Positions 1 to 27,376 of a stretch of DNA of 64,000 nucleotides are shown piece after piece. The notes under the pieces are model-generated. The model saw nothing but the letters and a program-made list of their open reading frames with translations, was not told where the DNA came from and made no database searches. The stretch is from a virus (lineage: Duplodnaviria > Caudoviricetes): positions 96,001 to 160,000 of the IMG/VR virus record IMGVR_UViG_2617271113_000004. The stretch is one strand, 5' to 3'. The first letter of the stretch is position 1. Each line of letters begins with the position of its first letter. The position numbers and the translations under genes were made by a program.

Positions 1-453
1 ATATTTTACCGTAAGAGCAGCTTTTGGAGCTTCTCTAAACTCAATAACCCCAACTTCAGCGTCTTTAATAAATACATCCTCATTTATAACTAAACTATTA
101 TCTCCAACTTGAACTGACAGTAATTCTGTAACGTCTTTCATATCAGTTATATTAAATGTTTTTTCCGTATTCGTTGATAATATGTCTTGACTGGCACTTT
201 TTATTGATTCAGGTTGTATCTTCATATTATAAACAAAATAGCCTTCTTCGTTTGAGATACTATTTGTTTCACCTTTTTCAGTTTCTAAAACTCGACTTGT
301 CTTAGCTGGGTTTGACATCATATTTGCAACTATTTCATTAGCACTCGTAACAACCAAATTCTTTTTTTCTTTAGTAAAAAAGATACCTTCTTCATTATAT
401 AATTCAAGTTTTACATTTCCTTTGGGATTCATTGCACTGACATCATTTAGCAT
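1..453 (-). CDS. Virion structural (tail/baseplate-type) protein, truncated by window edge
   Basis: ATG at 453 with GAGGTG RBS, open to position 1. N-terminus (NPKGNVKLELYN...KNLVVTSANEIVANMMSNP) resembles the N-terminal block of 478..2589. Confidence 0.65.
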   Translation of the reverse strand, partial: MLNDVSAMNPKGNVKLELYNEEGIFFTKEKKNLVVTSANEIVANMMSNPAKTSRVLETEKGETNSISNEEGYFVYNMKIQPESIKSASQDILSTNTEKTFNITDMKDVTELLSVQVGDNSLVINEDVFIKDAEVGVIEFREAPKAALTVKY

Positions 454-4548: not shown

Positions 4549-5091
4549 TTACTTAGATTCTTTAGATTCACTTTTCTTTTTGGTTTGCTTTTTCGTATTT
4601 TTCTTTGGAGCTTGTTTTTCTTCTGTTTTCTTTTCTTCCTCTTTTTCCTGATTAGTGTCTTCTACTACGATCTCATTATTTTCTTCTACATCTAATGCAG
4701 TTGCTTCTACCTGTTGAGCACCTGGTTCTCCGCTACCTTCACCTGTTCCTGGTTCCGGATCTGGTTCCGGATCTGGCTCCGGATCTGGCTCCTGAGGTAC
4801 TTCTGGAATTGCTACACTATTATTTTGCACAGAGTCAATTCGTTCTTGTGCTTTTCTACGTAAGATATCATACTTGGACATCCATTTATTTAAAGTGGCA
4901 TCTGGAAATTTACCTTCATACAAAATCAATGCGGGAACATGTGCGCAGCAAGCATTACAAATACCTGTTAAATCTGTTGAGTCGTTATAGAATATTTTTT
5001 GTACAGGATTATCTAGAGTAATATATGTGTTTGTTTTTTCATCATAAAACCCACTCTTATTTCGTGCTAAACCAACTTTTAGATATTTCAT
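4549..5091 (-). CDS. Hypothetical head-associated protein with PE/PD linker and Lys-rich tail
   Basis: 180 aa, strong AAGGAGG RBS, immediately after the major capsid gene. Confidence 0.55.
   Translation of the reverse strand: MKYLKVGLARNKSGFYDEKTNTYITLDNPVQKIFYNDSTDLTGICNACCAHVPALILYEGKFPDATLNKWMSKYDILRRKAQERIDSVQNNSVAIPEVPQEPDPEPDPEPDPEPGTGEGSGEPGAQQVEATALDVEENNEIVVEDTNQEKEEEKKTEEKQAPKKNTKKQTKKKSESKESK
4749..4792. repeat. 12-bp tandem repeat (CTGGYTCCGGAT x3.6) encoding EPDP repeats
   Basis: Directly visible in the sequence. Confidence 0.9.
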
Positions 5092-11248: not shown

Positions 11249-12478
11249 CTAAACCGCTGATAACGAGTATCCATTGGTACGAGCATACTCAGCAATCCAA
11301 TTATCCGATACGTCGTTAGTTCCTTCTAAATCCTCAACTATTCTATAAAATAGTCTTATTTCTTCCTTTTTTTGAATTGCAGATAGCTGACGACCATAAA
11401 ATACACTCTCATTTTTATAAATATTGATCATGTCTGTGACACTTTCATTATAATCTTTTCTTGTCTTTTGAATTGAATTAACAAGAATATCCGCTATGCG
11501 ATCCGTTGATTTTCCACTTTCTTCGGGCTGTTCATATAGCCAGTCCTTAAGATCGTTATTTGCTTTGTTTACGATTTGTTGATAGAAATAATTTCGTTGT
11601 GATGTAAATGCCTCTTTCTTATCATCAATCATCATATACTGCTGCTTAATCGAGTTGTGTACAGATTTCATTTCTTTAAAACTCAGTATTAGATGTGATT
11701 TTAATGCTTGAACATTTTTTAAATCTGCTAATTGTCTTATAAGCATTTCTACATTTCCATCTATTAATTCTTGAGGATTATGAATAATCTCCTCTGCTCC
11801 TTCAATAATCGTTTCAAATTGAATAGCCCTGTTACGATGCACATATGCTATATCTCCCAACGATGTATGAAATGTATCTAAATTTCTTCTCTGCTTTTCA
11901 AGTTCTTCTATTTCCTTCTCAATTTCATCCAATTCACCATGCATCTGATTTTCATAAGCTTCTAATAACTTGTATTCAGATAGAATCCATGTCGATATAG
12001 AGTCTTTTTCTGCTTTAATTACTTTTTCAGTTTCCGTTTCAGAAGTGATTTGTGTTCGATAATGATTGTCAATGAATGTAACTTGTTTTTCTAGAGAAGC
12101 TTTCATATAAAATAACATTGAGTAAATCTCTAAATCTGCAGTTCCATCAAAACCACAATAAGTGTCTTCTACCTGAAAAGCTTTTTCTAATTCTCGTTCT
12201 TCTAACAAGATTAAATAATCATTAAATTGCTCCTTGTTTTGTCTGTTTTTAATAACTTCTAAAAGCGAGTTCATTCGATCAATTAGTTGCTGATAATCAA
12301 TGATTGCTCTAGTTATTAAAAAATCTTGAGAACGATCTATTTTGTTTACTGTATCCGATCCTAAAGGGAACTTCGATTCTTTATCTGGATATTGCATGTT
12401 CGGTCTATAACTAATTAAATGCCTTTCATAATTGGTATCAATTCCAATGTCTCCATACCATGTTTTATGTTTATTCAT
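11249..12478 (-). CDS. Hypothetical helical protein
   Basis: 409 aa between terL and portal. Confidence 0.5.
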   Translation of the reverse strand: MNKHKTWYGDIGIDTNYERHLISYRPNMQYPDKESKFPLGSDTVNKIDRSQDFLITRAIIDYQQLIDRMNSLLEVIKNRQNKEQFNDYLILLEERELEKAFQVEDTYCGFDGTADLEIYSMLFYMKASLEKQVTFIDNHYRTQITSETETEKVIKAEKDSISTWILSEYKLLEAYENQMHGELDEIEKEIEELEKQRRNLDTFHTSLGDIAYVHRNRAIQFETIIEGAEEIIHNPQELIDGNVEMLIRQLADLKNVQALKSHLILSFKEMKSVHNSIKQQYMMIDDKKEAFTSQRNYFYQQIVNKANNDLKDWLYEQPEESGKSTDRIADILVNSIQKTRKDYNESVTDMINIYKNESVFYGRQLSAIQKKEEIRLFYRIVEDLEGTNDVSDNWIAEYARTNGYSLSAV

Positions 12479-15884: not shown

Positions 15885-16648
15885 TCCTCCTCGTTATAAT
15901 CTATAGGTTCAACATCAATGATGTCGTCTTCTTCTGGCATTTTCATATTCATCTTCTTGTAATAGGCTTTTTTAGCTTCGTGTTCCGACTGCTTATTTTT
16001 TTCCATGTCTTGATTTACTTTAACCATTTCAGCTGCTTGTACAGATGGATCTTGTTTGATGGTTAACTTTTGACCTTCTTTATCTTTTCTTGTTGAGTTC
16101 AACAATTGGTAGGATTTATTCTTGCGGTTGATTAGTTTTTCTTTGTAGTCTGTTAGAGGATGAAGTTCTTGCCTCGTAATCGGTTCCCCATCTTCACTCA
16201 TTCCTACTGTGTTATTAACGATATAATCTGCGTCCCAAGCCATCTTATTATCACAACGAAGCAAGCCAATATCTGCATCTACAAGATCTTTTACGATCAT
16301 TAAGTCAATTGTGTCACTTGCTTTTCTATTCTCTAGATCTATTTCGAAATGTTCAGCATATCGTTCAAATAGGTCTTCGATTGCAGCAATTTCAATGGGG
16401 CACTTCTCGCCATATGGAGCTTTCTCCATCTCTACTAGAGGACAAGAGTGAGAATAAGGACACGCCTCCGCTTTACAAATGATCGGAACTGACGCATATA
16501 GACCATGCTTTGTATTTCTGAGTCTTTTAGCTACTTGAATAGCTTCAACAGCATCTGGATTAGAAGTCCATGCTGTATGGTCTAATTCTTTCGCACTTGC
16601 AGATATAGCAGCTAATCCAGCTTCTGTTTTAGGTCCTGTCTTGCTCAT
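15881..16648 (-). CDS. terS: Probable terminase small subunit
   Basis: First gene of the packaging operon; TGPKTEAG..S and N.KHGLYA motifs, Cys cluster, acidic tail. Confidence 0.6.
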   Translation of the reverse strand: MSKTGPKTEAGLAAISASAKELDHTAWTSNPDAVEAIQVAKRLRNTKHGLYASVPIICKAEACPYSHSCPLVEMEKAPYGEKCPIEIAAIEDLFERYAEHFEIDLENRKASDTIDLMIVKDLVDADIGLLRCDNKMAWDADYIVNNTVGMSEDGEPITRQELHPLTDYKEKLINRKNKSYQLLNSTRKDKEGQKLTIKQDPSVQAAEMVKVNQDMEKNKQSEHEAKKAYYKKMNMKMPEEDDIIDVEPIDYNEEE

Positions 16649-16785
16649 AGAAATTCCTCCTAAATATAAAAGGGCATACTCACTCGATCCCCCTTAACCT
16701 GCTGGTGCTTTGTGAGGCGGTGCAGTTGCCCGTTCTTTAATTTTACAATACCTGTATTTTTTAAGAAATTTTTCTAAGAAGGAAT

Positions 16786-16818
16786 AAAAAAAGCAGGATG
16801 CTTCTAATGCATCCTGCT
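16786..16818 (-). terminator. Intrinsic terminator after parM-parR
   Basis: AGCAGGATGC-ATTAGAA-GCATCCTGCT followed by a T run on the minus strand. Confidence 0.85.
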
Positions 16819-16876
16819 ACAGTGACGGTCGTACCCATTGTTAATGTTTTGCTTTGTTATTCTTTTTTTTGCACTT

Positions 16877-17068
16877 TTACTGCTGTTTTTCCTTTTGCTT
16901 TAGTTCCTCAATATACGCCTTCTCTTTTGCTTCTTCAGTTATCGCTTTTTCAAGAAGTCTTCTGATTTCATATGCTCTATCATTTGGCTTGATGTCCTTA
17001 AAATGATTTCGTAGCAAGTCGTCATTCTTTCGAATTCGAGCTACAAGCATATTATTGTCTTGCGACAT
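16877..17068 (-). CDS. Putative ParR-like adaptor (ribbon-helix-helix type)
   Basis: 63 aa overlapping the parM 3' end; beta-helix-helix pattern. Confidence 0.6.
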   Translation of the reverse strand: MSQDNNMLVARIRKNDDLLRNHFKDIKPNDRAYEIRRLLEKAITEEAKEKAYIEELKQKEKQQ

Positions 17069-18215
17069 GCGGTTGCATCTCCTTCACAGGACTTACATAC
17101 TCCTCTAATACTTTCTCTTGACCAAGCTCATCTGATAACTCAAGAACACCATACATATAAAATCCTAGAAGGTTCGTAAATTGGGAATTTTCCATTATAA
17201 TAAATCCTTGGATATTTTCTTTTTCAAAGTTCTTGCCAACTTCCTTTGCGTAGACATGAGCCCCCCCACCAGTGGCAATAATCAATTGTAACCGGTTAGA
17301 CTCATTTCCCCATGCTGTTGTAATTGAATCAGCAATAGGTTTAGCTCGATCAGCAATAACAGCTTGAATTTCATCTGATACATCAAAGTCAGTATTTCTA
17401 TATTTAATATTTCCAGTCTGAATCGCATAGTCTAAATCCTGATCTGACGGGTGGAACATATAACCCATATCAGCGAATTTTAATTCGATAGATCTGCGAA
17501 GACGCTTATATACTTCTGTTACTCCAATTGTTGATTTATTTTTTGTGTCATCTTCTAGTACAACCCCATTACGGAATAAAGCATAATCCGTAGATACATG
17601 TCCGAAGTCAATGACTCCTAAATATTCTGCACGATGTTCAGACGGTGCTAAGAAGCTTTCTTCATCAAAGCGAAATTGATTGTATGTAACGGTACCTTCT
17701 GGTTGTCTTAACACAACTACGCTTTTGACTTTCACGTCTTTTTTAATGCTATTTTTACTGTCTAAATAGAACTCTACGGTAAAGTCTTTACTTAAGAATG
17801 ATTCTAAGTCTTCTTTAATCTTCATGTCGTAATCTGTATTCGGAAGCCCCGTAACAATAGTAACTTCATATGTTCCACTTTTATCAGGAAGGCTTAACCC
17901 AATTCCTGTATGGAAAAGAACCCTACTCTTTTCATCATTGGCACGATTACGTTTTTCAGTACGCACGTTTACATTTTCTTCTACTGGCATACCTAAAGCA
18001 TTATCTCCAACGAAATATGTTCCTTCTTCCGTTTTCACCACTAATTCTTGTATGTTTATTTCACTAGAGGATAGCAATGGACGGCTTGCTGGTGTCCCAC
18101 TAACTACGCCACTTGGTATTACATGTGGCTCTGGCTTTGCATTTGACATATACTTTAAACCACCAAAACCTACGTCTACCCCTACTAAATATGGCACCTT
18201 CTTCTCTTTCGTCAT
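17052..18215 (-). CDS. parM: ParM/StbA-family actin-like segregation ATPase
   Basis: GVDVGFGGLK, VTGLP, QPEG, VIDFGHVSTD and TGGGA actin-fold motifs. Confidence 0.9.
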   Translation of the reverse strand: MTKEKKVPYLVGVDVGFGGLKYMSNAKPEPHVIPSGVVSGTPASRPLLSSSEINIQELVVKTEEGTYFVGDNALGMPVEENVNVRTEKRNRANDEKSRVLFHTGIGLSLPDKSGTYEVTIVTGLPNTDYDMKIKEDLESFLSKDFTVEFYLDSKNSIKKDVKVKSVVVLRQPEGTVTYNQFRFDEESFLAPSEHRAEYLGVIDFGHVSTDYALFRNGVVLEDDTKNKSTIGVTEVYKRLRRSIELKFADMGYMFHPSDQDLDYAIQTGNIKYRNTDFDVSDEIQAVIADRAKPIADSITTAWGNESNRLQLIIATGGGAHVYAKEVGKNFEKENIQGFIIMENSQFTNLLGFYMYGVLELSDELGQEKVLEEYVSPVKEMQPHVARQ

Positions 18216-18237
18216 TCCCTATTTCTCCCTCCAGTAT

Positions 18238-18271
18238 AATATGTTTAAATTGTTAACATTTTGAACATATT
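18238..18271. promoter_or_regulatory. 34-bp imperfect palindrome, candidate parC/ParR operator
   Basis: AATATGTTTAAATTGTTAACATTTTGAACATATT lies between the promoter and the parM RBS. Confidence 0.55.
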
Positions 18272-18274
18272 CCT

Positions 18275-18303
18275 AGTTTACCTATAAATGCTGATAGATG
18301 CAA
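18275..18303 (-). promoter_or_regulatory. sigmaA-type promoter of parMR
   Basis: TTGCAT-N17-TAAACT on the minus strand. Confidence 0.6.
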
Positions 18304-18314
18304 GTATTACCAAT

Positions 18315-18346
18315 AAAAAAGCACCGCTTTTTGCGATGCTTTCTTT
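18315..18346 (-). terminator. Terminator ending the RNA cluster transcript
   Basis: AAAGCATCGC-AAAAA-GCGGTGCTTT followed by a T run on the minus strand. Confidence 0.7.
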
Positions 18347-18377
18347 AGGAAAAGGAAGGATAATGGAATTTTAGAGC

Positions 18378-18555
18378 TTGCAGCTCTTTTAAAGAGCCTA
18401 GGAAAACAGGGAAACCCAAGCTCCTTAAAACAACTGCAAATCGATATGGACAGGAACTAAAGAGACATCAAATATTAATATTAACGATATATGAGATAAA
18501 ATGAAAGGAGTGTAATATGAATGAAAGATAGTCTCTTTAGCCCTATTCCTATATC
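18378..18555 (-). ncRNA. Two long hairpins with pyrimidine-rich loops (putative sRNAs)
   Basis: Stems of about 24 bp (18378-18439, 18443-18555) whose mismatches become G-U pairs only on the minus strand. Confidence 0.55.
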
Positions 18556-18577
18556 AAGGCAAAGGGGGTAATAGTTG

Positions 18578-18641
18578 TGTTCTTGACTGGACTCTCACCA
18601 GTATCTCTTGTGACAAGCGCATTAACTTATACTACAAGAAC
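18578..18641 (-). ncRNA. tRNA-like RNA with truncated anticodon arm
   Basis: Acceptor GTTCTTG/CAAGAAC, D arm GTAT/ATGC, arm CTTG-TCA-CAAG, T arm ACTGG-TGAGAGT-CCAGT. Confidence 0.7.
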
Positions 18642-18648
18642 ATATAAG

Positions 18649-18726
18649 CGCCCTCTTGGGAGTTGAACCCACCCACAACAGCATATGGCCATCTATCTGT
18701 TGACTCATCCACCGAAAGGAAAGGGC
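18649..18726 (-). ncRNA. tRNA-like RNA with elongated anticodon arm
   Basis: Acceptor GCCCTTT/AGAGGGC, T arm TGGG-TTCAACT-CCCA, stem CAACAG/CTGTTG enclosing 15 nt. Confidence 0.6.
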
Positions 18727-18732
18727 ATATAA

Positions 18733-18807
18733 TCTCGATAGCAGGACTTGAACCTACGACCTCTGCGTCCCAAACGCAGCGCTCTACGCAAACTGAGCTA
18801 TATCGAG
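18733..18807 (-). tRNA. tRNA-Pro(TGG)
   Basis: Full cloverleaf; anticodon arm CTGCG-TT-TGG-GA-CGCAG; GGTTCAAGTCC; CCA not encoded. Confidence 0.93.
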
Positions 18808-18814
18808 TTGTATC

Positions 18815-18965
18815 CTTGCAGTTGTAAACCACTCTAACAACTGCTCTGTATTCATGTTTAGCACTAACTCTTGTCAGGTGATACGCCTTAGCTAAATGTA
18901 AAATACATTTTTTTGCTCAATTTTATTCTTGCCTGTATCAGAAGGCTGAGCCGTGGAGTTGTTAT
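18815..18965 (-). ncRNA. Unassigned structured RNA of about 150 nt
   Basis: Closing stem TAACAACT/AGTTGTTA with internal stems GCTCA/TGAGC and TGTATT..TTTAGC/GCTAAA..AATACA. Confidence 0.4.
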
Positions 18966-18972
18966 AAAATAG

Positions 18973-19066
18973 TGACCTTCATAGGAATTGAACCTATATC
19001 CACCTCTTGCTAAGCAATAAACCAGTCATCACCTAGTAAGTGTAGTAGAATTCTCCAGTAAGATCA
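18973..19066 (-). ncRNA. tRNA-like RNA resembling a miniature tmRNA tRNA-like domain
   Basis: TGATCTT/AAGGTCA acceptor, no D stem, GAATTCTAC...GTGGAT, T arm ATAGG-TTCAATT-CCTAT. Confidence 0.55.
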
Positions 19067-19100
19067 TTATGTATACGGGTCAAGATTAATTGACCCGATT

Positions 19101-19505
19101 TTATAAAGCAGGCAATGGATGAAGAGTCATACTTTCGTCAGTAACCCATCCTCCTGCAGCAGGATCATCAAAATAATGATAAATATATTGTCCAACTGCT
19201 TTTTGATTAACATCTGGTAGAAGAAAACCCACATTAACTACTCTTTTATTTTCCTCATCTGTTATTACTTCTTCATGAATTAGCTCTGCGTCCATTATAG
19301 TGAAAGGTTCTCCTGTTCCAGGATAGTTCATAAAGTTATCAACGAACCGTGGTCCATGGTTAGGATACATTTCATCTGGTGGATAAAACTGTATTCTTGT
19401 GTTTTGAGTAGGTTCTACAGCAAAATGTAATATTTCTGTAAATACACCATTTTTTCCACCTGCATAGTTACACATATACACTGCTTCTGGTTCTGTGAAA
19501 TCCAT
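19101..19505 (-). CDS. Hypothetical protein inside the RNA cluster
   Basis: 134 aa with AGGAG RBS. Confidence 0.65.
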   Translation of the reverse strand: MDFTEPEAVYMCNYAGGKNGVFTEILHFAVEPTQNTRIQFYPPDEMYPNHGPRFVDNFMNYPGTGEPFTIMDAELIHEEVITDEENKRVVNVGFLLPDVNQKAVGQYIYHYFDDPAAGGWVTDESMTLHPLPAL

Positions 19506-19534
19506 ACCATCAGCTCCTATATTTTATTAGTTGA

Positions 19535-19607
19535 CATTCCCTGTTGGAGTTGCACCTTACCATCTACAGTTAACTCACTATAGACTGACTACTAACTAGT
19601 AGGGAAC
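19535..19607 (-). ncRNA. Degenerate tRNA-like RNA
   Basis: Acceptor GTTCCCT/AGGGAAT, 8-bp stem TCTATAGT/ACTGTAGA with 6-nt loop, T-loop-like GG-TGCAACT-CC. Confidence 0.5.
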
Positions 19608-19610
19608 ATA

Positions 19611-19685
19611 TGGCTGAGTAGGTAGGATTCGAACCTACGACTAACCGGTTAACAGCCGATTGCTCTACCGCTGAGCTACTACTCA
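19611..19685 (-). tRNA. tRNA-Asn(GTT)
   Basis: Full cloverleaf; loop CT-GTT-AA; GGTTCGAATCC; encoded CCA. Confidence 0.95.
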
Positions 19686-19764
19686 ATATTGCAAATGCTC
19701 TAATGAAGAACATTTGCCTTTAAAAAGAGAAGAATAAATATGCTTCTAACAAACCCTTAAATAG

Positions 19765-19793
19765 ATAATACTACAAAATGTAATGTCTTTCAA
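19765..19793 (-). promoter_or_regulatory. sigmaA-type promoter of the tRNA cluster, overlapped by an operator variant
   Basis: TTGAAA-N17-TATTAT; TGTAATGTCTTTCA at 19779-19792. Confidence 0.6.
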
Positions 19794-19852
19794 TATATTT
19801 ATTATAATATTTTAAACTTTTTTTATATTCAGTTTTTAATCTAGACATCTTG

Positions 19853-20395
19853 TTATTCTCTTTTTATATTCATCTGTAGATTTGCATTATTGATGAAAGC
19901 TTGATAATCGTTCTCTACCCTTCCTCCAACTACATATATTGGTCCTTCAGACTTATGGAGAATTTCACGAGACAGCTTAAGTATTTTCCTGAAATAACTA
20001 TTATCAATAAACTCTATATCTTCCATAATAACTGCATCTGCAGATAGTCCTGCAACCAGATGGCTATCACCATTAACACCAAAAAAGGTAATCCGTTTTC
20101 CATTATCTAAACATAGCGTGTTTGAATTAGAATAAATAACATTAACTCCCTGCTCTTCGAAAACGTCTTTATAGACCCTTGTATTCAAGGTTACAGTGCC
20201 TCCTATCAATACTACATGGTTCCATTCGGATTTGTTTATTTTTTTGGCAATATTATAGGATTTTCCACTTCCTCTGTCAGCAGTAACAGCTAATGTTTTA
20301 CAGTTAGCTTCTTGAAATAAGTCCCATTTATCTTTTTTCTTAAATAGTCTTTTAAATATTTTTTTCATAATTAATTCTCCTTTTTTGTAATGCAT
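19853..20395 (-). CDS. Small terminase-like P-loop ATPase domain protein (likely start 20368)
   Basis: ADRGSGKS Walker A; GKRITF; AGLSADAVIMEDIEFID Walker B region. Confidence 0.6.
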   Translation of the reverse strand: MHYKKGELIMKKIFKRLFKKKDKWDLFQEANCKTLAVTADRGSGKSYNIAKKINKSEWNHVVLIGGTVTLNTRVYKDVFEEQGVNVIYSNSNTLCLDNGKRITFFGVNGDSHLVAGLSADAVIMEDIEFIDNSYFRKILKLSREILHKSEGPIYVVGGRVENDYQAFINNANLQMNIKRE

Positions 20396-21713: not shown

Positions 21714-21896
21714 CTATTTGTAAATCTTACTACGATCTATTGGCACTATTTTAGAATAGCCATAACCTAAATCGATTATCTCTGAATTGTTCCTCAAGTC
21801 TACAGAACCATTTTCTACTAAGCGTTCATGCAGTGTTTTCTGTTCTGTTTTCTTTCTTCTGATGTATGTAGGCTTCTTCCCGTTTTCCATATACAA
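21714..21896 (-). CDS. Hypothetical protein
   Basis: 60 aa with AGGAGG RBS. Confidence 0.6.
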   Translation of the reverse strand: MYMENGKKPTYIRRKKTEQKTLHERLVENGSVDLRNNSEIIDLGYGYSKIVPIDRSKIYK

Positions 21897-21937
21897 ATCC
21901 TCCTTTTTATTTTCATTTATTCTTATTTAGACCTAAG

Positions 21938-21951
21938 TGTAATGCATTACA
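21938..21951. promoter_or_regulatory. Perfect palindromic operator TGTAATGCATTACA (type copy of a dispersed family)
   Basis: Perfect 14-bp palindrome; variants at 19779, 20386, 31048, 37682, 40353, 50640, 50664, 55397, 58984 and 59003. Confidence 0.75.
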
Positions 21952-22122
21952 AATAGTTTATCTTACTCTGAATTTAAAGTCACTACCTAAACCTGGGGAA
22001 AAACCCTTATAGGGGAAAATTTCTAAAAAAAATTGCTCGGGGTACTACCTTTTATATAGGGAGTTTTCCAGGGCGTTTGTAGCCCCCACCCCTAACAAAC
22101 TATTAGAAAAGGATGATGAACA

Positions 22123-22302
22123 ATGCAAACAGTATCATTAGTAAACTTATTCAACCAATTAAAAGGATCAGGCAAATGTATCCGATTCGGTGACTTAATG
22201 AAAAGAGGATTTAATGCTGATCTAATCAAGGTAGCTGTAGAGAGATGTGAGATCGAACTAGGATTAGATGGAGAAGGATACACCATTGTTGTATTTAACT
22301 AA
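22123..22302 (+). CDS. Small hypothetical protein (59 aa, not in ORF track)
   Basis: MQTVSLVNLF...YTIVVFN with AAAGGATG RBS; first plus-strand gene. Confidence 0.65.
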   Translation: MQTVSLVNLFNQLKGSGKCIRFGDLMKRGFNADLIKVAVERCEIELGLDGEGYTIVVFN

Positions 22303-22305
22303 TGA

Positions 22306-22374
22306 ATCGAAACACCTTTCAAGAAAGGAAGGTGTATGCAGGACATGACCACCCTGTACTGATGAGATAGGTCA
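22306..22374 (+). ncRNA. Type II hammerhead ribozyme with pseudoknot
   Basis: ATC-GAAA-CACCTT..AAGGTG-TA^TGCAGG-loop-CCTGTA-CTGATGA-GAT; loop TGACC pairs with 3' GGTCA. Confidence 0.88.
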
Positions 22375-22424
22375 CACTATTGTCCAGCTCATGACATGAA
22401 ACCGAGCATTAGAAAGGAGTCAAT

Positions 22425-22910
22425 ATGACTACAACGAGCATGAATAAGGATGCACTAACTACTGTACTAGCAGGTGCAAAGGAAGGAGTCAATAAGATAA
22501 AGAAGTCAAAACGATTTGAATCCATAGTTGAGAAAGCAGGTGTTGCATTAGGTAAAGCATACCGTGCAACAGAAGCTTTTATTAAAGGACATTGGAAGAA
22601 TGCTGCGCTTGCCACAGCTACAACAGTAGGTGCTGGTGCGATAACCACTGGGCTAGGCAGTGCGTTATGCGCAGGCGCCTTACTATATGGTGGCATAAAG
22701 ACACTAGCCTACTACCTAAGCCATAAACAGGTGCGATTCAAAGATGCAACTATCAATTTGTTTATTGAAAGTAGTATTGGATTCGTATATGGCATGGGCT
22801 TACTACTTGCTTATCTAATAGGTGGCACATTGCTAATCACGCTATCTGCTGAATTGGGACATTTCCTAGCTGCTAACTGGATGTATGTGCTGTATCTACT
22901 AGTAGGTTAA
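22425..22910 (+). CDS. Hypothetical membrane protein
   Basis: 161 aa with several hydrophobic helices and AAAGGAG RBS. Confidence 0.7.
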   Translation: MTTTSMNKDALTTVLAGAKEGVNKIKKSKRFESIVEKAGVALGKAYRATEAFIKGHWKNAALATATTVGAGAITTGLGSALCAGALLYGGIKTLAYYLSHKQVRFKDATINLFIESSIGFVYGMGLLLAYLIGGTLLITLSAELGHFLAANWMYVLYLLVG

Positions 22911-22914
22911 TAGC

Positions 22915-23082
22915 CTTGTAGTGTACCTCTGCCCCTCTCTATAGCGACACATCACATAGCTACTATAGAGTGTATGAACAGCTAGGTGATCGATAGGTGT
23001 TGTACATGCCCTGCTCTATCGTCAAAGAGATAATCATGTGCCTGTAGTGATTCCTGTAGAGTAACCGCTCGTCATTACAGAA
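22915..23082 (+). ncRNA. Structured intergenic RNA element
   Basis: Several overlapping 6-11 bp complementarities (see findings). Confidence 0.4.
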
Positions 23083-23143
23083 GCTTTATATGTAATACCA
23101 ATCAATTAGATTTAAAACAAATTAATCATTGGAGGAATTTAAA

Positions 23144-23251
23144 ATGAAAAACTTATTAATCAAATTCGTACAACAGGACGCTACAGATAAGAAGATTCAA
23201 CTTGTATTCGTTGGAATGTTAGCTTTTCTATTCTTTGCACTAACACACTAA
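23144..23251 (+). CDS. 35-aa single-TM peptide (not in ORF track)
   Basis: MKNLLIKF...VGMLAFLFFALTH with GGAGG RBS. Confidence 0.65.
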   Translation: MKNLLIKFVQQDATDKKIQLVFVGMLAFLFFALTH

Positions 23252-23273
23252 AAAACAATTGGAGGAATGAACG

Positions 23274-23477
23274 ATGGACGTAACTTACAAACAATTAATT
23301 CTCGAAGGAAAATATCTTGGCTACTGTGGTCATATGGGATACCTGTATTCCATCTTTGTTAGATATGACGAGAAGGAACAGGAAGTATATCAAATCTATG
23401 GTGTTCATGGAAATGCGTTACATTTTCTTATTGAATATCCAATACTACGAAAGGAGCATGATGTAGATGAACTATAA
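23274..23477 (+). CDS. Hypothetical protein
   Basis: 67 aa with GGAGG RBS. Confidence 0.65.
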   Translation: MDVTYKQLILEGKYLGYCGHMGYLYSIFVRYDEKEQEVYQIYGVHGNALHFLIEYPILRKEHDVDEL

Positions 23478-23850
23478 TATGCCAACTGGAAGATATGTTG
23501 AATTATACGTCAAAGAAATCTTCAAAGAACTGTTTGAAACAACTTATGTTGAAGCAACAAAAGAAGATGATCTATATCGAGGGACAGACTTCTTCATTGG
23601 GTCTGTTCCTATTGATGTAACCATTAATGAAAGTAAAGATCACTGCAAGTTAATTAAGAAGTATTTATTGGATGGCGTTACAGTCTCCGTGTCCAAACGT
23701 AACCGTAACGCCAGGGTAACATTCGAAAGACCAGTATTAGTCTTTCATTTTGATCTGTACGATTTGCGAGATCGTATGCAGATCTGTGAGTTAATCGATG
23801 AATCACTCACACAAGACATTATAACAGAAATCTTAGGCCTTTATAAATAA
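23467..23850 (+). CDS. Possible PD-(D/E)xK-like nuclease-fold protein
   Basis: G.YVE...EDDLYRGTDF....IDVT pattern. Confidence 0.45.
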   Translation: MNYNMPTGRYVELYVKEIFKELFETTYVEATKEDDLYRGTDFFIGSVPIDVTINESKDHCKLIKKYLLDGVTVSVSKRNRNARVTFERPVLVFHFDLYDLRDRMQICELIDESLTQDIITEILGLYK

Positions 23851-23869
23851 GGCTAACCACAAAGGAGAA

Positions 23870-26800
23870 ATGATTACTATGAAAAATCAAACTGCGACTG
23901 TATCAAATCAATCTAACCAAACTAAAGGAGATGTTATTAAAATGGAAAATCGTACAATGTTAAAAGAAAATGGTTATCTATACACTGTTCAGGACATTCT
24001 TGCTGCCCTATCTAAATCAGAAGGTTTCAAATCACGTGATTCAAAGAACTTTGCTCGTGTACTAAGAGCAATGTCAGAAGGAAAGGCATTACTTGATATC
24101 TTAGCTAATCCGTCACTAGCAGGAGTACCGAATAATCAAGTTCGGTACTTTACTGAGTTTGTAGAAAACAACAAACTAGCAAAACGTGTATATAAACCAA
24201 CACGTAAAGGTGTACTTGTTCCAATTGCTGATATTAATCTAATGGAAATGCAAGAAGATAAAGTATACTCAACAATTGATTATTCTGAAGTAAATGTAGA
24301 CTCTTATAAAGAGATTAGTGAATCGTTCTTGAGTGAAACACTAGCTTCTACACCAGAGATGATTGAGTTTACTCGTAATGGAAAACTTATTAAACAACGC
24401 ATGATGCTTCCTATGCGTCATGTCTTCTTCGTGAGCTTAGGCTTGGAGCTCCCTGAAGAAGAAGCGGACTATGATCAGGAAGACTTTGATAATATTCATC
24501 TTCGTGAACGAGTAATGAAAGATGGATTTTATTTTACAGACGAAAATGGTGAAGAAGGACATGCTTACTTCTTCTTACGCACTCCATCTCAAGCACGTGT
24601 GTTACAAGCAGTCTTTATTGATACAGCTTTCATGTCCCCTGTTCAAGCGTTAAAACTATTAGGTCATGAATTAATTGCTTATGGCTCTCAAGATAATGAA
24701 GGCAATTATGTTGTTAAAGTAGACAAAATGATTACTCGTCCAGGTCTAGCTGGTACAAATACTGTTGCTTCTAAGACAGTTGATATTGGAAATATCGTGG
24801 AGATTAATCATAAAGGTGAACAACGCTTAGTTGGTGGTGTGCATACCCTACGTGTTGTAGAAGATAGACAAGTTGAAATTAAAACAGGTACGTATCGTGC
24901 TTGGGACAAAGAGAAACAATGCTTTAAAGAGTTTGATGCAAATGAGCATCCGATCTCACTAACAGCAGCAGATGGTGCGATCTTCTGTGATGAAGAGATT
25001 TATCATACACTTGGTGCAGAGTTCGGTCAATTTAACGATGCATGGCAAATTCGCATTACTCCATTTGTTAAAGGTCTTATGGTGTTCGTGCCAAATCTAC
25101 GTGCTTACTATGATGATCATATTATTGCATTTAAGTCTGCTGTTAAAGGTGACTTTGCTAATCTAATTACAGCTAATCCTGACTTCAAACCACAACTACG
25201 TATTGCTATGTTTAACCGTAATCTTAATCAAGAAAAGACGTATACGGATATGCCTTATCAATTTGTACAAGCTTCTTCACTAAACACAAGTGACCTATGG
25301 AAAGTTATGAAACCACACTTAGAAAAAGTAGGCAATGCATTACACGATCCAAGTATCATGAAGAAATATGTAGGGCTAGATAAAGTCATTGATGCTGATC
25401 TATTCGATCAGGAAACAGAACACTACATGATTGATCAGTCTCGAGTATCAACGTTTACTTCGTTCTTAGATATGTTTGATTGGACTTATGAAGATGTGCA
25501 TATGAAACGCTATGCATTAGATGTGCTCAAAGAAAAGATTGCTGATTGGAAAACCGGCAATGTGCCTGTAGAAGGACATTATCGCTATTTAATGCAAGAT
25601 CCATATGCTGTACTAGAAGCTGGTACAAAGTATACCGTTCGCAATGAAAATGGAGATCTAATGATAACAAATCGTGGATCTTATCACATTCAACCAAACG
25701 AAGCATTTGTCCCATCTGCTCATGAACATAAATCAAATGTCTATGTAGCAGCTGGACGTAACCCAATGATTGCAAAAGGTGAGTGGCAAGTGGTCCGTCA
25801 TCGCCCTATCGATATGTATAACCGTGCTTATAAGAAAGGTGCTTTCCGTAACATTACACTTATGAGTGTGCATGACATGAGACTATTTGCTATGGGTGGA
25901 GCTGACGTTGATGGAGATACTGCACTAACTGTAACAGATGAAACAATTGTACAAGCATTAAAGCGTAAAGAAACTTCTCCAGTAATGGATATCTCTTTTG
26001 TTGAGAAAGATGGCAATATCGAATTCTTAGGAGATGGTGTTCCTTATTCAAAAGAAATGACTGGTGTATATCGTATGCCAGAACACTTAGTAGACAAGCA
26101 AAATAATTACAAGATCACATTTACAAAAGAACAAAATACAGATGAACTCTATGAAGAGGTTCATAAGCTAGGTGTTGATTATGTCATACGTACATTAAAG
26201 CCAAACAAAATTGGTATTGCTACTAACATTGCATCTATCTTGGCAGATGCTGTTCGTGGCTTAGGCTATGACTTATATTTGAATAATGTATCTCAAGATC
26301 AAGTAATGACTACGATTAAACAGTATGAGAACTGGATTGACATCCTACGCTTAGTACAAGGTTGGGAAATTGATGCAGCTAAACATGGTGGTGCCTATCA
26401 AGAAGTCATGAAAGAAACATTAGACTTTATGGATAACCCACCTGAATCATTATCATATCTACACAAAGGTCTTGGTCGTCGTGTATGGAATAAGCCTAAT
26501 TGGTTAGCAGCACGTGTTGGAAAGAAAGGTCATGATCTGGGGTCTGTGTTGTCACGTCTTATGGATCTTGTTCAACAATTCGAAGACAATATGTTAACGA
26601 ATGAATTGGAAAGAATGCATCTAGAAGCAGATAGCTTTTCTCTGTTAGCTAAACTAAACAGTGCATTCCAATTAGATCCTGCTTACTTTAATGAGCTTGC
26701 TAATCATGTAAAACAATTAAAAGCTTCTTATGGTTCAGCTGTTCGTAAGACACATCAAGCAGCTCAAGATAAGAAGCAAGTTATTATTGAATCAAATACA

Positions 26801-27376
26801 CCTGATCATATACGTGATCTCCAATTTGAAGAAATTGAAGTGAAGTTAAACAACTATATTGGAGACATCGCAGATATGGCTCGTGATAAGATTGCAGAGC
26901 TTATGAGTATGTATCCAGCTAAAGATATTGGATATGTATCTTACTATGTAACATATGTAGATCGTAAGAAAGAAGCATCTCTCTCTTTCCCATGGACTGT
27001 AGCACGTGAAGCATTTATTCAGACACTTTCTTATGTGGAGAATAAAGAGAAGCAAGATCAACTTACTGCGAATGAAGTTGTAGACAATAATATTACACTT
27101 GCTGTATGTATTCCTGATGCGATTCAAGAGCAGTTTACAATGGAGAAAGTATTAGAAGGATTGCATAAGCAACCATCATTCATTCAAGCTGTAGGTGATA
27201 AGTATAGACTAATCATTGGTCAAACTGAAGTAGGCTTTGTATTTAATTCAGCTAAGAATATTAAGTCACTTCTAGGTCATGATAAGTATGAACTTAATAT
27301 CAGTACGTCTACACCTGGCCGTGGAACACGTACAGTTAACCTAGAAGTGAATGAACTAATCAAGATAGGAGCCTAA
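23870..27376 (+). CDS. Single-subunit double-psi-barrel RNA polymerase, eukaryotic-RdRP-like (SPbeta YonO-type)
   Basis: DGAIF, WQIR...KGLM, GRNP, catalytic GGADVDGD (DxDGD) and IDAAKHG occur in the order seen in cellular RdRP/YonO proteins. Confidence 0.88.
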   Translation: MITMKNQTATVSNQSNQTKGDVIKMENRTMLKENGYLYTVQDILAALSKSEGFKSRDSKNFARVLRAMSEGKALLDILANPSLAGVPNNQVRYFTEFVENNKLAKRVYKPTRKGVLVPIADINLMEMQEDKVYSTIDYSEVNVDSYKEISESFLSETLASTPEMIEFTRNGKLIKQRMMLPMRHVFFVSLGLELPEEEADYDQEDFDNIHLRERVMKDGFYFTDENGEEGHAYFFLRTPSQARVLQAVFIDTAFMSPVQALKLLGHELIAYGSQDNEGNYVVKVDKMITRPGLAGTNTVASKTVDIGNIVEINHKGEQRLVGGVHTLRVVEDRQVEIKTGTYRAWDKEKQCFKEFDANEHPISLTAADGAIFCDEEIYHTLGAEFGQFNDAWQIRITPFVKGLMVFVPNLRAYYDDHIIAFKSAVKGDFANLITANPDFKPQLRIAMFNRNLNQEKTYTDMPYQFVQASSLNTSDLWKVMKPHLEKVGNALHDPSIMKKYVGLDKVIDADLFDQETEHYMIDQSRVSTFTSFLDMFDWTYEDVHMKRYALDVLKEKIADWKTGNVPVEGHYRYLMQDPYAVLEAGTKYTVRNENGDLMITNRGSYHIQPNEAFVPSAHEHKSNVYVAAGRNPMIAKGEWQVVRHRPIDMYNRAYKKGAFRNITLMSVHDMRLFAMGGADVDGDTALTVTDETIVQALKRKETSPVMDISFVEKDGNIEFLGDGVPYSKEMTGVYRMPEHLVDKQNNYKITFTKEQNTDELYEEVHKLGVDYVIRTLKPNKIGIATNIASILADAVRGLGYDLYLNNVSQDQVMTTIKQYENWIDILRLVQGWEIDAAKHGGAYQEVMKETLDFMDNPPESLSYLHKGLGRRVWNKPNWLAARVGKKGHDLGSVLSRLMDLVQQFEDNMLTNELERMHLEADSFSLLAKLNSAFQLDPAYFNELANHVKQLKASYGSAVRKTHQAAQDKKQVIIESNTPDHIRDLQFEEIEVKLNNYIGDIADMARDKIAELMSMYPAKDIGYVSYYVTYVDRKKEASLSFPWTVAREAFIQTLSYVENKEKQDQLTANEVVDNNITLAVCIPDAIQEQFTMEKVLEGLHKQPSFIQAVGDKYRLIIGQTEVGFVFNSAKNIKSLLGHDKYELNISTSTPGRGTRTVNLEVNELIKIGA

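Follow-up and report, generated by a model that had tools for sequence, protein, structure and literature searches.

Whether the short interval between the first two genes of a phage gene cluster encodes a working self-cleaving ribozyme, and what a cut at that position would do to the genes on either side, is the question raised by this locus. The window, the whole stretch of 64,000 nucleotides analyzed here, comes from a virus record of 191,052 nt that is classified as a provirus. A divergent control region (approximately 21897-22122) has minus-strand genes on one side and a plus-strand cluster on the other. The cluster opens with gene 1, a 59-aa open reading frame (ORF; 22123-22302, plus strand), followed by the predicted ribozyme (22306-22374, plus strand) and a 26-nt motif, gene 2 (161 aa with hydrophobic stretches; 22425-22910, plus strand), a 363-nt ORF-poor stretch, two small ORFs, and a 1168-aa ORF (23870-27376, plus strand). 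Neither gene 1 nor gene 2 has a family match in Pfam or PHROG. A simple scan of the plus strand detected no sigma-70-like promoter and one terminator-like site (23725-23746), which lies within an ORF, and a blastn search of cultured phages with 21900-23900 gave no match.

The 1168-aa ORF matches the Pfam RdRP family PF05183 (E value, 1.7e-8; 34.1 bits against a cutoff of 23.8), and a tblastn search of cultured phages yields a weak match (22% identity) to a 924-aa hypothetical protein of a Spbetavirus, the gene for which is two genes upstream of an HU-family gene. Together, these matches suggest a two-barrel, single-chain, RdRP-like polymerase of the kind that we take to be represented by YonO. 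A PDB sequence search with the protein returned no significant match. The polymerase-like gene begins 1.5 kb beyond the ribozyme, on the far side of the ORF-poor stretch; placing the ribozyme at the head of a polymerase operon, as was originally done, is therefore an overstatement, and its position is better given as between genes 1 and 2.

The hammerhead and its background of chance matches

The original prediction was of a complete type II hammerhead beginning 3 nt after the first plus-strand ORF, and every element that it listed is present, with gene 1 ending at 22302. Stem II consists of 3 bp (AUC 22306-22308 with GAU 22366-22368), and its closing pair beside the core is G22366-C22308 (G10.1-C11.1). 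The first part of the core, G12, A13, and A14 (GAA 22309-22311), leads into the stem III hairpin (22312-22335), which has 9 bp in the minimum free energy (MFE) fold and begins with the pair A15.1-U16.1 (A22312-U22335). The cleavage position, H17, is A22336, which places the cut between 22336 and 22337. Next come the stem I hairpin (22337-22358), with 6 bp both by sequence and in the MFE fold (UGCAGG 22337-22342 with CCUGUA 22353-22358), and the second part of the core, CUGAUGA (22359-22365). A single nucleotide, A22369, separates the 3' strand of stem II from the tail GGUCA (22370-22374), which is complementary to UGACC (22346-22350) in loop I and would form a pseudoknot of 5 bp, where 4 or more are required. 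The conserved type II core is complete (C3, U4, G5, A6, N7, G8, and A9; G12, A13, and A14; the A15.1-U16.1 pair; and a non-G H17), and the three helices have the expected arrangement, in which loops cap stems I and III and stem II is left open. The MFE fold has an energy of -19.8 kcal/mol (z score, -2.15), and 6 of 200 shuffled sequences fold as well.

In addition to sequence and fold, the assignment draws on Rfam, a structural descriptor, and a syntenic copy. A scan with the Rfam Hammerhead_II model (RF02276), as originally proposed, produced an end-to-end alignment (model positions 1 to 66 of 66) scoring 29.3 bits, below the gathering score of 37 bits. The corresponding E values are 3.1e-4 on 281 nt and 5e-5 on the 191-kb record, in which the window site is the sole match (7 candidates scored). 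When the whole window is scanned at Rfam gathering thresholds, only two tRNAs are listed and the hammerhead is absent. Because 6 of 14 control genomes also contain Hammerhead_II matches at E values up to 1, none of them over the cutoff, the subthreshold score is insufficient by itself. A purpose-written descriptor (a 3-bp stem II, GAAA, stem III, UH, stem I, and CUGAUGA, with 4 bp or more in each of stems III and I) finds this hammerhead and no other site in the window. Applied to 2000 dinucleotide shuffles of the window, the descriptor gave 15 lax matches; none of the 2000 combined 6 bp or more in stem III with 5 bp or more in stem I, compared with 9 bp, 6 bp, and a 5-bp pseudoknot at the real site.

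Comparison with L002 and other phage hammerheads

Searching viral contigs with the polymerase gene recovered a single close relative, L002, a 194,705-nt contig whose 1178-aa orthologue is 69% identical; searches of viral contigs with the 161-aa protein or with a 35-nt exact ribozyme string recovered no relatives. The gene order of L002 is the same as that of the window (ORFs of 58, 161, 67, 145, and 1178 aa). The two phages are well diverged, since the proteins flanking the ribozyme are 64% (gene 1 and the 58-aa ORF) and 34% (gene 2 and the 161-aa ORF) identical. Between its 58-aa and 161-aa ORFs, L002 has a Hammerhead_II match (4553-4622; 24.4 bits, likewise short of the gathering score) that reads GUC-GAA-stem III-C17-stem I-UUGAUAA-GAC-A-AGUCAA. 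The core UUGAUAA is the U3-A8 variant, and position 17 is C.

With both ribozymes placed on a 16-sequence alignment, 14 of the 21 pairs are the same; the others have changed on one side (3) or on both (4), and none is broken, the comparative support here coming from a single homologue. The two-sided changes are distributed over stem II (U-A to C-G), stem III (U-A to C-G), the pseudoknot (C-G to U-A), and the core (C3-G8 to U3-A8), and the non-core unpaired columns are identical at 5 of 14 positions. Four compensatory changes and no disruptive ones relative to a syntenic copy argue for a real ribozyme under selection. Together with the full-length Rfam match, they bear out the original description of an intact, pseudoknotted type II hammerhead.

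For a wider view of the class, a degenerate pattern derived from the window and L002 ribozymes was run on viral contigs and matched 17 stretches, 16 of them outside the L002 contig. Those 16 contigs have the same hammerhead architecture throughout, and in most of them a purine run resembling a ribosome binding site (RBS) and an ATG follow within about 50 nt after the ribozyme. An Rfam rescan of the nine nonduplicate loci among the 16 yielded 12 Hammerhead_II matches above the cutoff (39 to 60 bits). By locus, the pattern-matched ribozyme is over the cutoff in 7 of 9; the remaining two (L013 and L022) are below it and have a canonical core. Across the 16-sequence alignment, 96.4% of cells are paired, compared with 76.4% in shuffles (0 of 500 as high), a figure that includes the pseudoknot and C3-G8 and in which part of stems III and II was fixed by the pattern. 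The pseudoknot columns are paired in 92.5% of cells across the 16 ribozymes. Two of the contigs carry additional elements: one 6.5-kb viral contig (L023:2989-5577) has five Hammerhead_II ribozymes above the Rfam cutoff, and another (L009:1007-1171) has two hammerheads and a FuFi-1 RNA (144 bits).

Type II hammerheads with a pseudoknot between loop I and the 3' tail are known from bacteria and prophages (Perreault 2011, PMC3088659), and that report describes stem II with as few as 2 bp, U3-A8 covariation in natural sequences, and the processing of polycistronic RNA from prophages. By its sequence, the predicted hammerhead is a divergent, AU-rich addition to the phage class described in 2011. 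It shares with RF02276 members the core, the type II topology, a short stem II, and a loop I pseudoknot with the nucleotides just past stem II, as well as an intergenic position in a phage polycistronic unit and, in the orthologue L002, the U3-A8 variant. It differs in its AU-rich stems and longer loops, which put the score 8 bits under the cutoff, in its occurrence as one copy per genome rather than in an array, and in the 26-nt motif that lies between ribozyme and RBS. For the HHphage ribozyme of haloviruses HF1 and HF2, PMC3088659 gives a mapped 5' end no more than 3 nt from the cut; HHphage comes from an archaeal virus, has a variant core, and precedes the first gene of its transcript, whereas the window's lies between genes 1 and 2. 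The Rfam cutoff thus misses divergent, AU-rich copies such as this one, and the window and L002 orthologues supply a natural C3-G8 to U3-A8 swap.

A portable 26-nt motif ahead of the ribosome binding site

The strings that were originally listed downstream of the ribozyme, as the arms of a small pseudoknot just before the next RBS, are all in place: TGTC (22381-22384), GCTC (22387-22390), GACA (22393-22396), and GAGC (22404-22407), then the Shine-Dalgarno (SD) sequence AAAGGAG (22413-22419, plus strand) and an ATG at 22425. Copies in other genomes and counts of their pairs delimit a near-invariant 26-nt motif, GUCCAGCUCAUGACAYNAAACCGAGC (22382-22407, plus strand), a candidate small H-type pseudoknot, with the SD sequence 5 nt past it and 5 nt before the ATG. 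Its conservation between the window and L002 exceeds that of the ribozyme. The motif occurs once in the window, once in the whole record, and never in shuffles.

Elsewhere, exact or near-exact copies were found in 3 other viral contigs, in 13 Streptococcus genome contigs plus a contig equal to L002 and titled Oceanobacillus profundus, in 26 metagenome stretches, and, with stem 1 left free, in 7 further viral contigs. The cultured Bacillus cereus phage vB_BceM_WH1 carries a variant with a third loop 2 nt longer, 23 nt before gp127. Among 62 instances, variation is confined to positions 16 (U or C) and 17 (any base) and a single C7-to-U change.

These copies represent 50 distinct contexts in phages, streptococcal mobilizable elements, and the one cultured Bacillus phage. 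Wherever a gene is adjacent, the motif is on its sense strand, just ahead of the RBS. An SD sequence, a start codon, and an ORF of 30 aa or more follow within 110 nt on the same strand in 39 of the 50 contexts; the distance to the SD is 3 to 7 nt in 8 of these (the phage type, then AGAAAGGA) and 21 to 37 nt in 31 (the streptococcal type). The other 11 comprise approximately four loci too short for a full ORF (L050, L068, L075, and L076), five with an SD but a short ORF under a naive choice of start (L033, L044, L048, L057, and L072), and L071 and L074, near which no gene start lies. In 48 of the 50 contexts the motif is unaccompanied by a hammerhead, and only in the window and L002 is it joined to the ribozyme. 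Because a Hammerhead_II search of five other motif-bearing phage records gave no match, the motif is an independent, portable unit.

In the Streptococcus elements, which also carry FtsK-like and Rep_OBD genes, the motif flanks a gene for a sigma-70 region-4-like protein. Two motif copies bracket this gene in L036 (4374-4399 and 4902-4927) and in 12 other Streptococcus contigs, and the second copy precedes a small gene that starts MKIKPQHRKGGYS and has no family match. A 158-kb AT-rich phage has four copies (G002:C1:5536-5558, 11398-11420, 25754-25776, and 103398-103420; L004 and L075 to L077), each preceded at about 35 nt by a shared promoter-like box of the TGATATAAT type and followed 4 to 6 nt later by AGAAAGGA; A15 is changed to U in three of the four. 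The exact 26-nt motif is also found in a 5.3-kb contig classed as viral (L005:4492-4517, minus strand; also L006 and L066), approximately 1.2 kb upstream of a 1071-aa ORF with a GDD string. It lies there within a 2-kb ORF-free region, in which no long ORF is found under translation tables 11 and 4. A PDB sequence search with the 1071-aa ORF returned no significant match. Should this contig prove to be an RNA virus, the motif would have to function as RNA.

The pseudoknot model pairs positions 1 to 3 with 12 to 14 (stem 1; 22382-22384 with 22393-22395) and positions 6 to 9 with 23 to 26 (stem 2; 22387-22390 with 22404-22407). Among 27 distinct sequences, stem 1 changes from U-A to A-U in four, from G-C to U-A in one, and from C-G to U-G in one, with one A-C mismatch. 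Its covariation score is 0.102 compared with 0.027 in shuffles (0 of 500 as high), and the number of pairs altered on both sides is two, a value reached in 6 of 500 shuffles. Stem 2 is invariant in the same 27 sequences apart from one C-G to U-G change, and no covarying stem 2 appeared in a scan with the whole of stem 2 free or in a metagenome scan with its inner pairs free; each of the pattern scans kept the other stem fixed. A stable nested hairpin was rejected as an alternative (-4.5 kcal/mol; z score, +0.57). The small H-type pseudoknot of the original prediction therefore fares unevenly: stem 1 gains compensatory changes from other elements, but stem 2 shows no covariation and the nested fold is unstable. 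Likewise, three of the four pairs proposed between TGTC and GACA hold, but the fourth, between the U preceding the motif and A15, is unpaired in 9 of the 27 distinct sequences. From these alignments, the pseudoknot model seems plausible for stem 1 and is untried by natural variation for stem 2.

Several other explanations of the motif were considered and set aside. A repeated promoter of the phage polymerase is at odds with a single copy in the 191-kb record, and a binding site for the streptococcal sigma-70 region-4-like protein would not serve in phages, since searches of the window's record and of two other motif-bearing phage records turned up no homologue. A conserved peptide (PAHD-I/M/T-KPS frame) was rejected as well; the other third-codon positions are invariant in the 62 instances, and most contexts have no in-frame start. 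The canT antiterminator of Tn916, as presented in PMC11658703, is a 452-nt region with no link to the motif. Rfam 15 (4227 families, including preQ1-I, pistol, hatchet, twister-sister, and the RAGATH motifs) gave only Hammerhead_II and a chance sroH match over 22200-22480 at E values up to 10, with none for the motif; scans of the motif copies in L004, L005, and L006 (E values up to 1) and of 21850-23900 (E values up to 5) found nothing. Strings of 14 nt from the motif, in DNA and RNA letters, were absent from a full-text literature search, and 9-mer matches look like unrelated primers.

PreQ1-I is a small H-type pseudoknot aptamer of about 34 nt. The motif, compared with it by shape only, is similar in size (26 nt) and topology (a short stem, a loop whose partner is the 3' end, and an A-rich third loop) and likewise lies just before the SD. 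Unlike preQ1-I, the motif has its SD outside stem 2, at a distance of 3 to 37 nt, has no Rfam match at E values up to 10, has invariant loops, and travels on mobile elements whose downstream genes are unrelated. That the loops hardly vary at all suggests recognition almost base by base by some conserved partner. Our best guess, held with low confidence, is that the motif is a leader module that fixes local structure beside the SD or blocks 5'-to-3' decay. A tentative and more specific reading, which we regard as possible rather than likely, sees in the motif a portable leader RNA of a new, so far uncatalogued class from mobile elements of Bacilli: a minimal pseudoknot that a conserved host component would read almost base by base, that would tune the next gene, and that would form part here of a natural cassette of ribozyme, insulator, and RBS. 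The host component may, for example, be the ribosome, RNase J or RNase Y, or another RNA-binding factor, and may set stability or translation. If the motif is a host-factor recognition site, it would provide a compact natural part for Gram-positive expression control and a marker of gene-cassette boundaries in mobile elements. The 26-mer, rather than the hammerhead, is the less ordinary part of this locus and is worth follow-up.

Predicted consequences of cleavage

Taking these comparisons together, the site is very probably a genuine and most likely active pseudoknotted type II hammerhead, which would cut an early plus-strand polycistronic RNA at A22336/U22337, between gene 1 and gene 2. Cleavage would uncouple the gene 1 message from everything downstream: the gene 1 message would stop at the cut, and gene 2 would become the first gene on the 3' product. 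At its 3' end, the 5' product would carry the 9-bp stem III hairpin and a 2',3'-cyclic phosphate. The 3' product would begin exactly at the base of the 6-bp stem I, still pseudoknotted to the tail, and would have no single-stranded 5' tail because U22337, the first nucleotide past the cut, forms the first pair of stem I. Gene 2 would then have a fixed, context-independent leader consisting of stem I, the 26-nt motif, and a strong SD.

The original prediction held that the 5'-OH end left by cleavage would resist 5'-monophosphate-dependent Bacillus RNases, which is contradicted by the fate of the glmS ribozyme product in Bacillus subtilis: this 5'-OH RNA is rapidly degraded and is a substrate of the 5'-to-3' exonuclease activity of RNase J1 (Collins 2007, as cited in PMC3328962). 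Any protection would more likely come from structure than from the 5'-OH, as a flush stem I would leave the RNase J1 exonuclease without single-stranded 5' nucleotides. A stabilizing or insulating outcome is what we infer from this flush 5' hairpin; glmS, the one self-cleaving mRNA leader of Bacilli that has been studied well, destabilizes its message. On hbs mRNA, ribosomes initiating at a strong SD are described as blocking RNase J1 (PMC5737220). The glmS element, as characterized in PMC3328962, resembles the window ribozyme in cleaving itself within a Bacilli mRNA leader and in giving a 5'-OH downstream product; it differs in that glmS is ligand dependent and its product is degraded, whereas the window ribozyme has no ligand domain and its product would start inside a hairpin.

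The leader arrangement may be the natural counterpart of the synthetic RiboJ insulator, which consists of a ribozyme and a hairpin before the RBS and whose terminal hairpin is discussed as stabilizing (PMC6206723). Both have the order of self-cleaving ribozyme, small structured element, and RBS, and in RiboJ the cut strips away the upstream context and leaves a structured 5' end, as is predicted here. RiboJ itself is engineered, combining the sTRSV hammerhead with a plain 23-nt hairpin, and was tested in Escherichia coli, according to PMC6206723. The window element, unlike RiboJ, is natural, has a near-invariant second part with pseudoknot potential, and belongs to a host class that has RNase J1.

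The glmS precedent also suggests an opposite outcome for a real ribozyme, in which RNase J1 would degrade the 5'-OH product and gene 2 and later genes would be lowered relative to gene 1. The rapid loss of the glmS product in B. subtilis (PMC3328962) and the identity of the host of L002, a Bacillaceae member, would fit such a negative role, but we think it improbable: the new 5' end is paired in stem I without a single-stranded overhang, beyond it come the conserved leader motif and, 5 nt short of the ATG, a strong SD, and many phage hammerheads of the same type lie directly before the RBSs of diverse genes, an arrangement that seems to fit processing better than silencing. It is also conceivable that hammerhead and motif form one switch, with the tail GGUCA pairing either with loop I, in the active state, or with UGAC of the motif, so that a binder of the motif would control cutting. 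The tail (22370-22374) is complementary to both loop I UGACC (5 bp) and UGAC 22393-22396 (4 bp), and 7 nt separate hammerhead and motif in both phages. Such a coupling is nonetheless very unlikely, given that a 4-nt complementarity is expected by chance, that the L002 pseudoknot between loop I and tail has 6 bp compared with 4 bp for the alternative, and that the motif has no hammerhead beside it in nearly all of its contexts, including the five other phage records.

Equally remote, in our view, is that the site resembles a hammerhead by chance or is a decayed, inactive remnant that no longer has a function. The score under the Rfam gathering threshold, the matches in control genomes, and the lax descriptor matches in shuffled windows are what such a site could produce; against it, the core nucleotides are all canonical, the observed stem lengths were reached by no shuffle, and the changes relative to the syntenic copy are compensatory and never disruptive while the loops diverge. 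We accordingly favor an active ribozyme with a structured 3' product. Because a 5'-OH end left by a ribozyme gives no protection in hosts that have RNase J1, the hammerheads of Bacilli phages pose a clear, testable question: does a flush stem I hairpin convert a decay signal into a stable, defined 5' end?

Other features of the surrounding region were noted in passing. The 363-nt ORF-poor stretch (22911-23273) is conserved in part with L002 (for example, TAGAGTRACCGCTCG) and includes a possible 40-aa ORF (23129-23251); neither an Rfam match nor an unusual fold (z score, -0.86) was found there. At one end of the L002 locus (1-443, minus strand) is a GOLLD RNA (195.8 bits), cut by the locus end and adjoining two tRNA genes. 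No GOLLD RNA was found in the window at E values up to 1; within the segment compared (16500-20000), two tRNAs that match the L002 pair are present on the minus strand (18733-18807 and 19614-19685), and a third tRNA-like match (18578-18641; 46.3 bits) was not picked up by the whole-window Rfam scan. The divergent control region that precedes gene 1 shares 79% identity with its L002 counterpart and contains a perfect, operator-like palindrome, GTAATGCATTAC, and a GC-rich block, GGCGTTTGTAGCCCCCACCCC, amid AT-rich DNA (21939-21950, 22072-22092). A string similar to this block, GCCCACCCC, precedes the motif copy in Bacillus phage vB_BceM_WH1 (L078:370-380).
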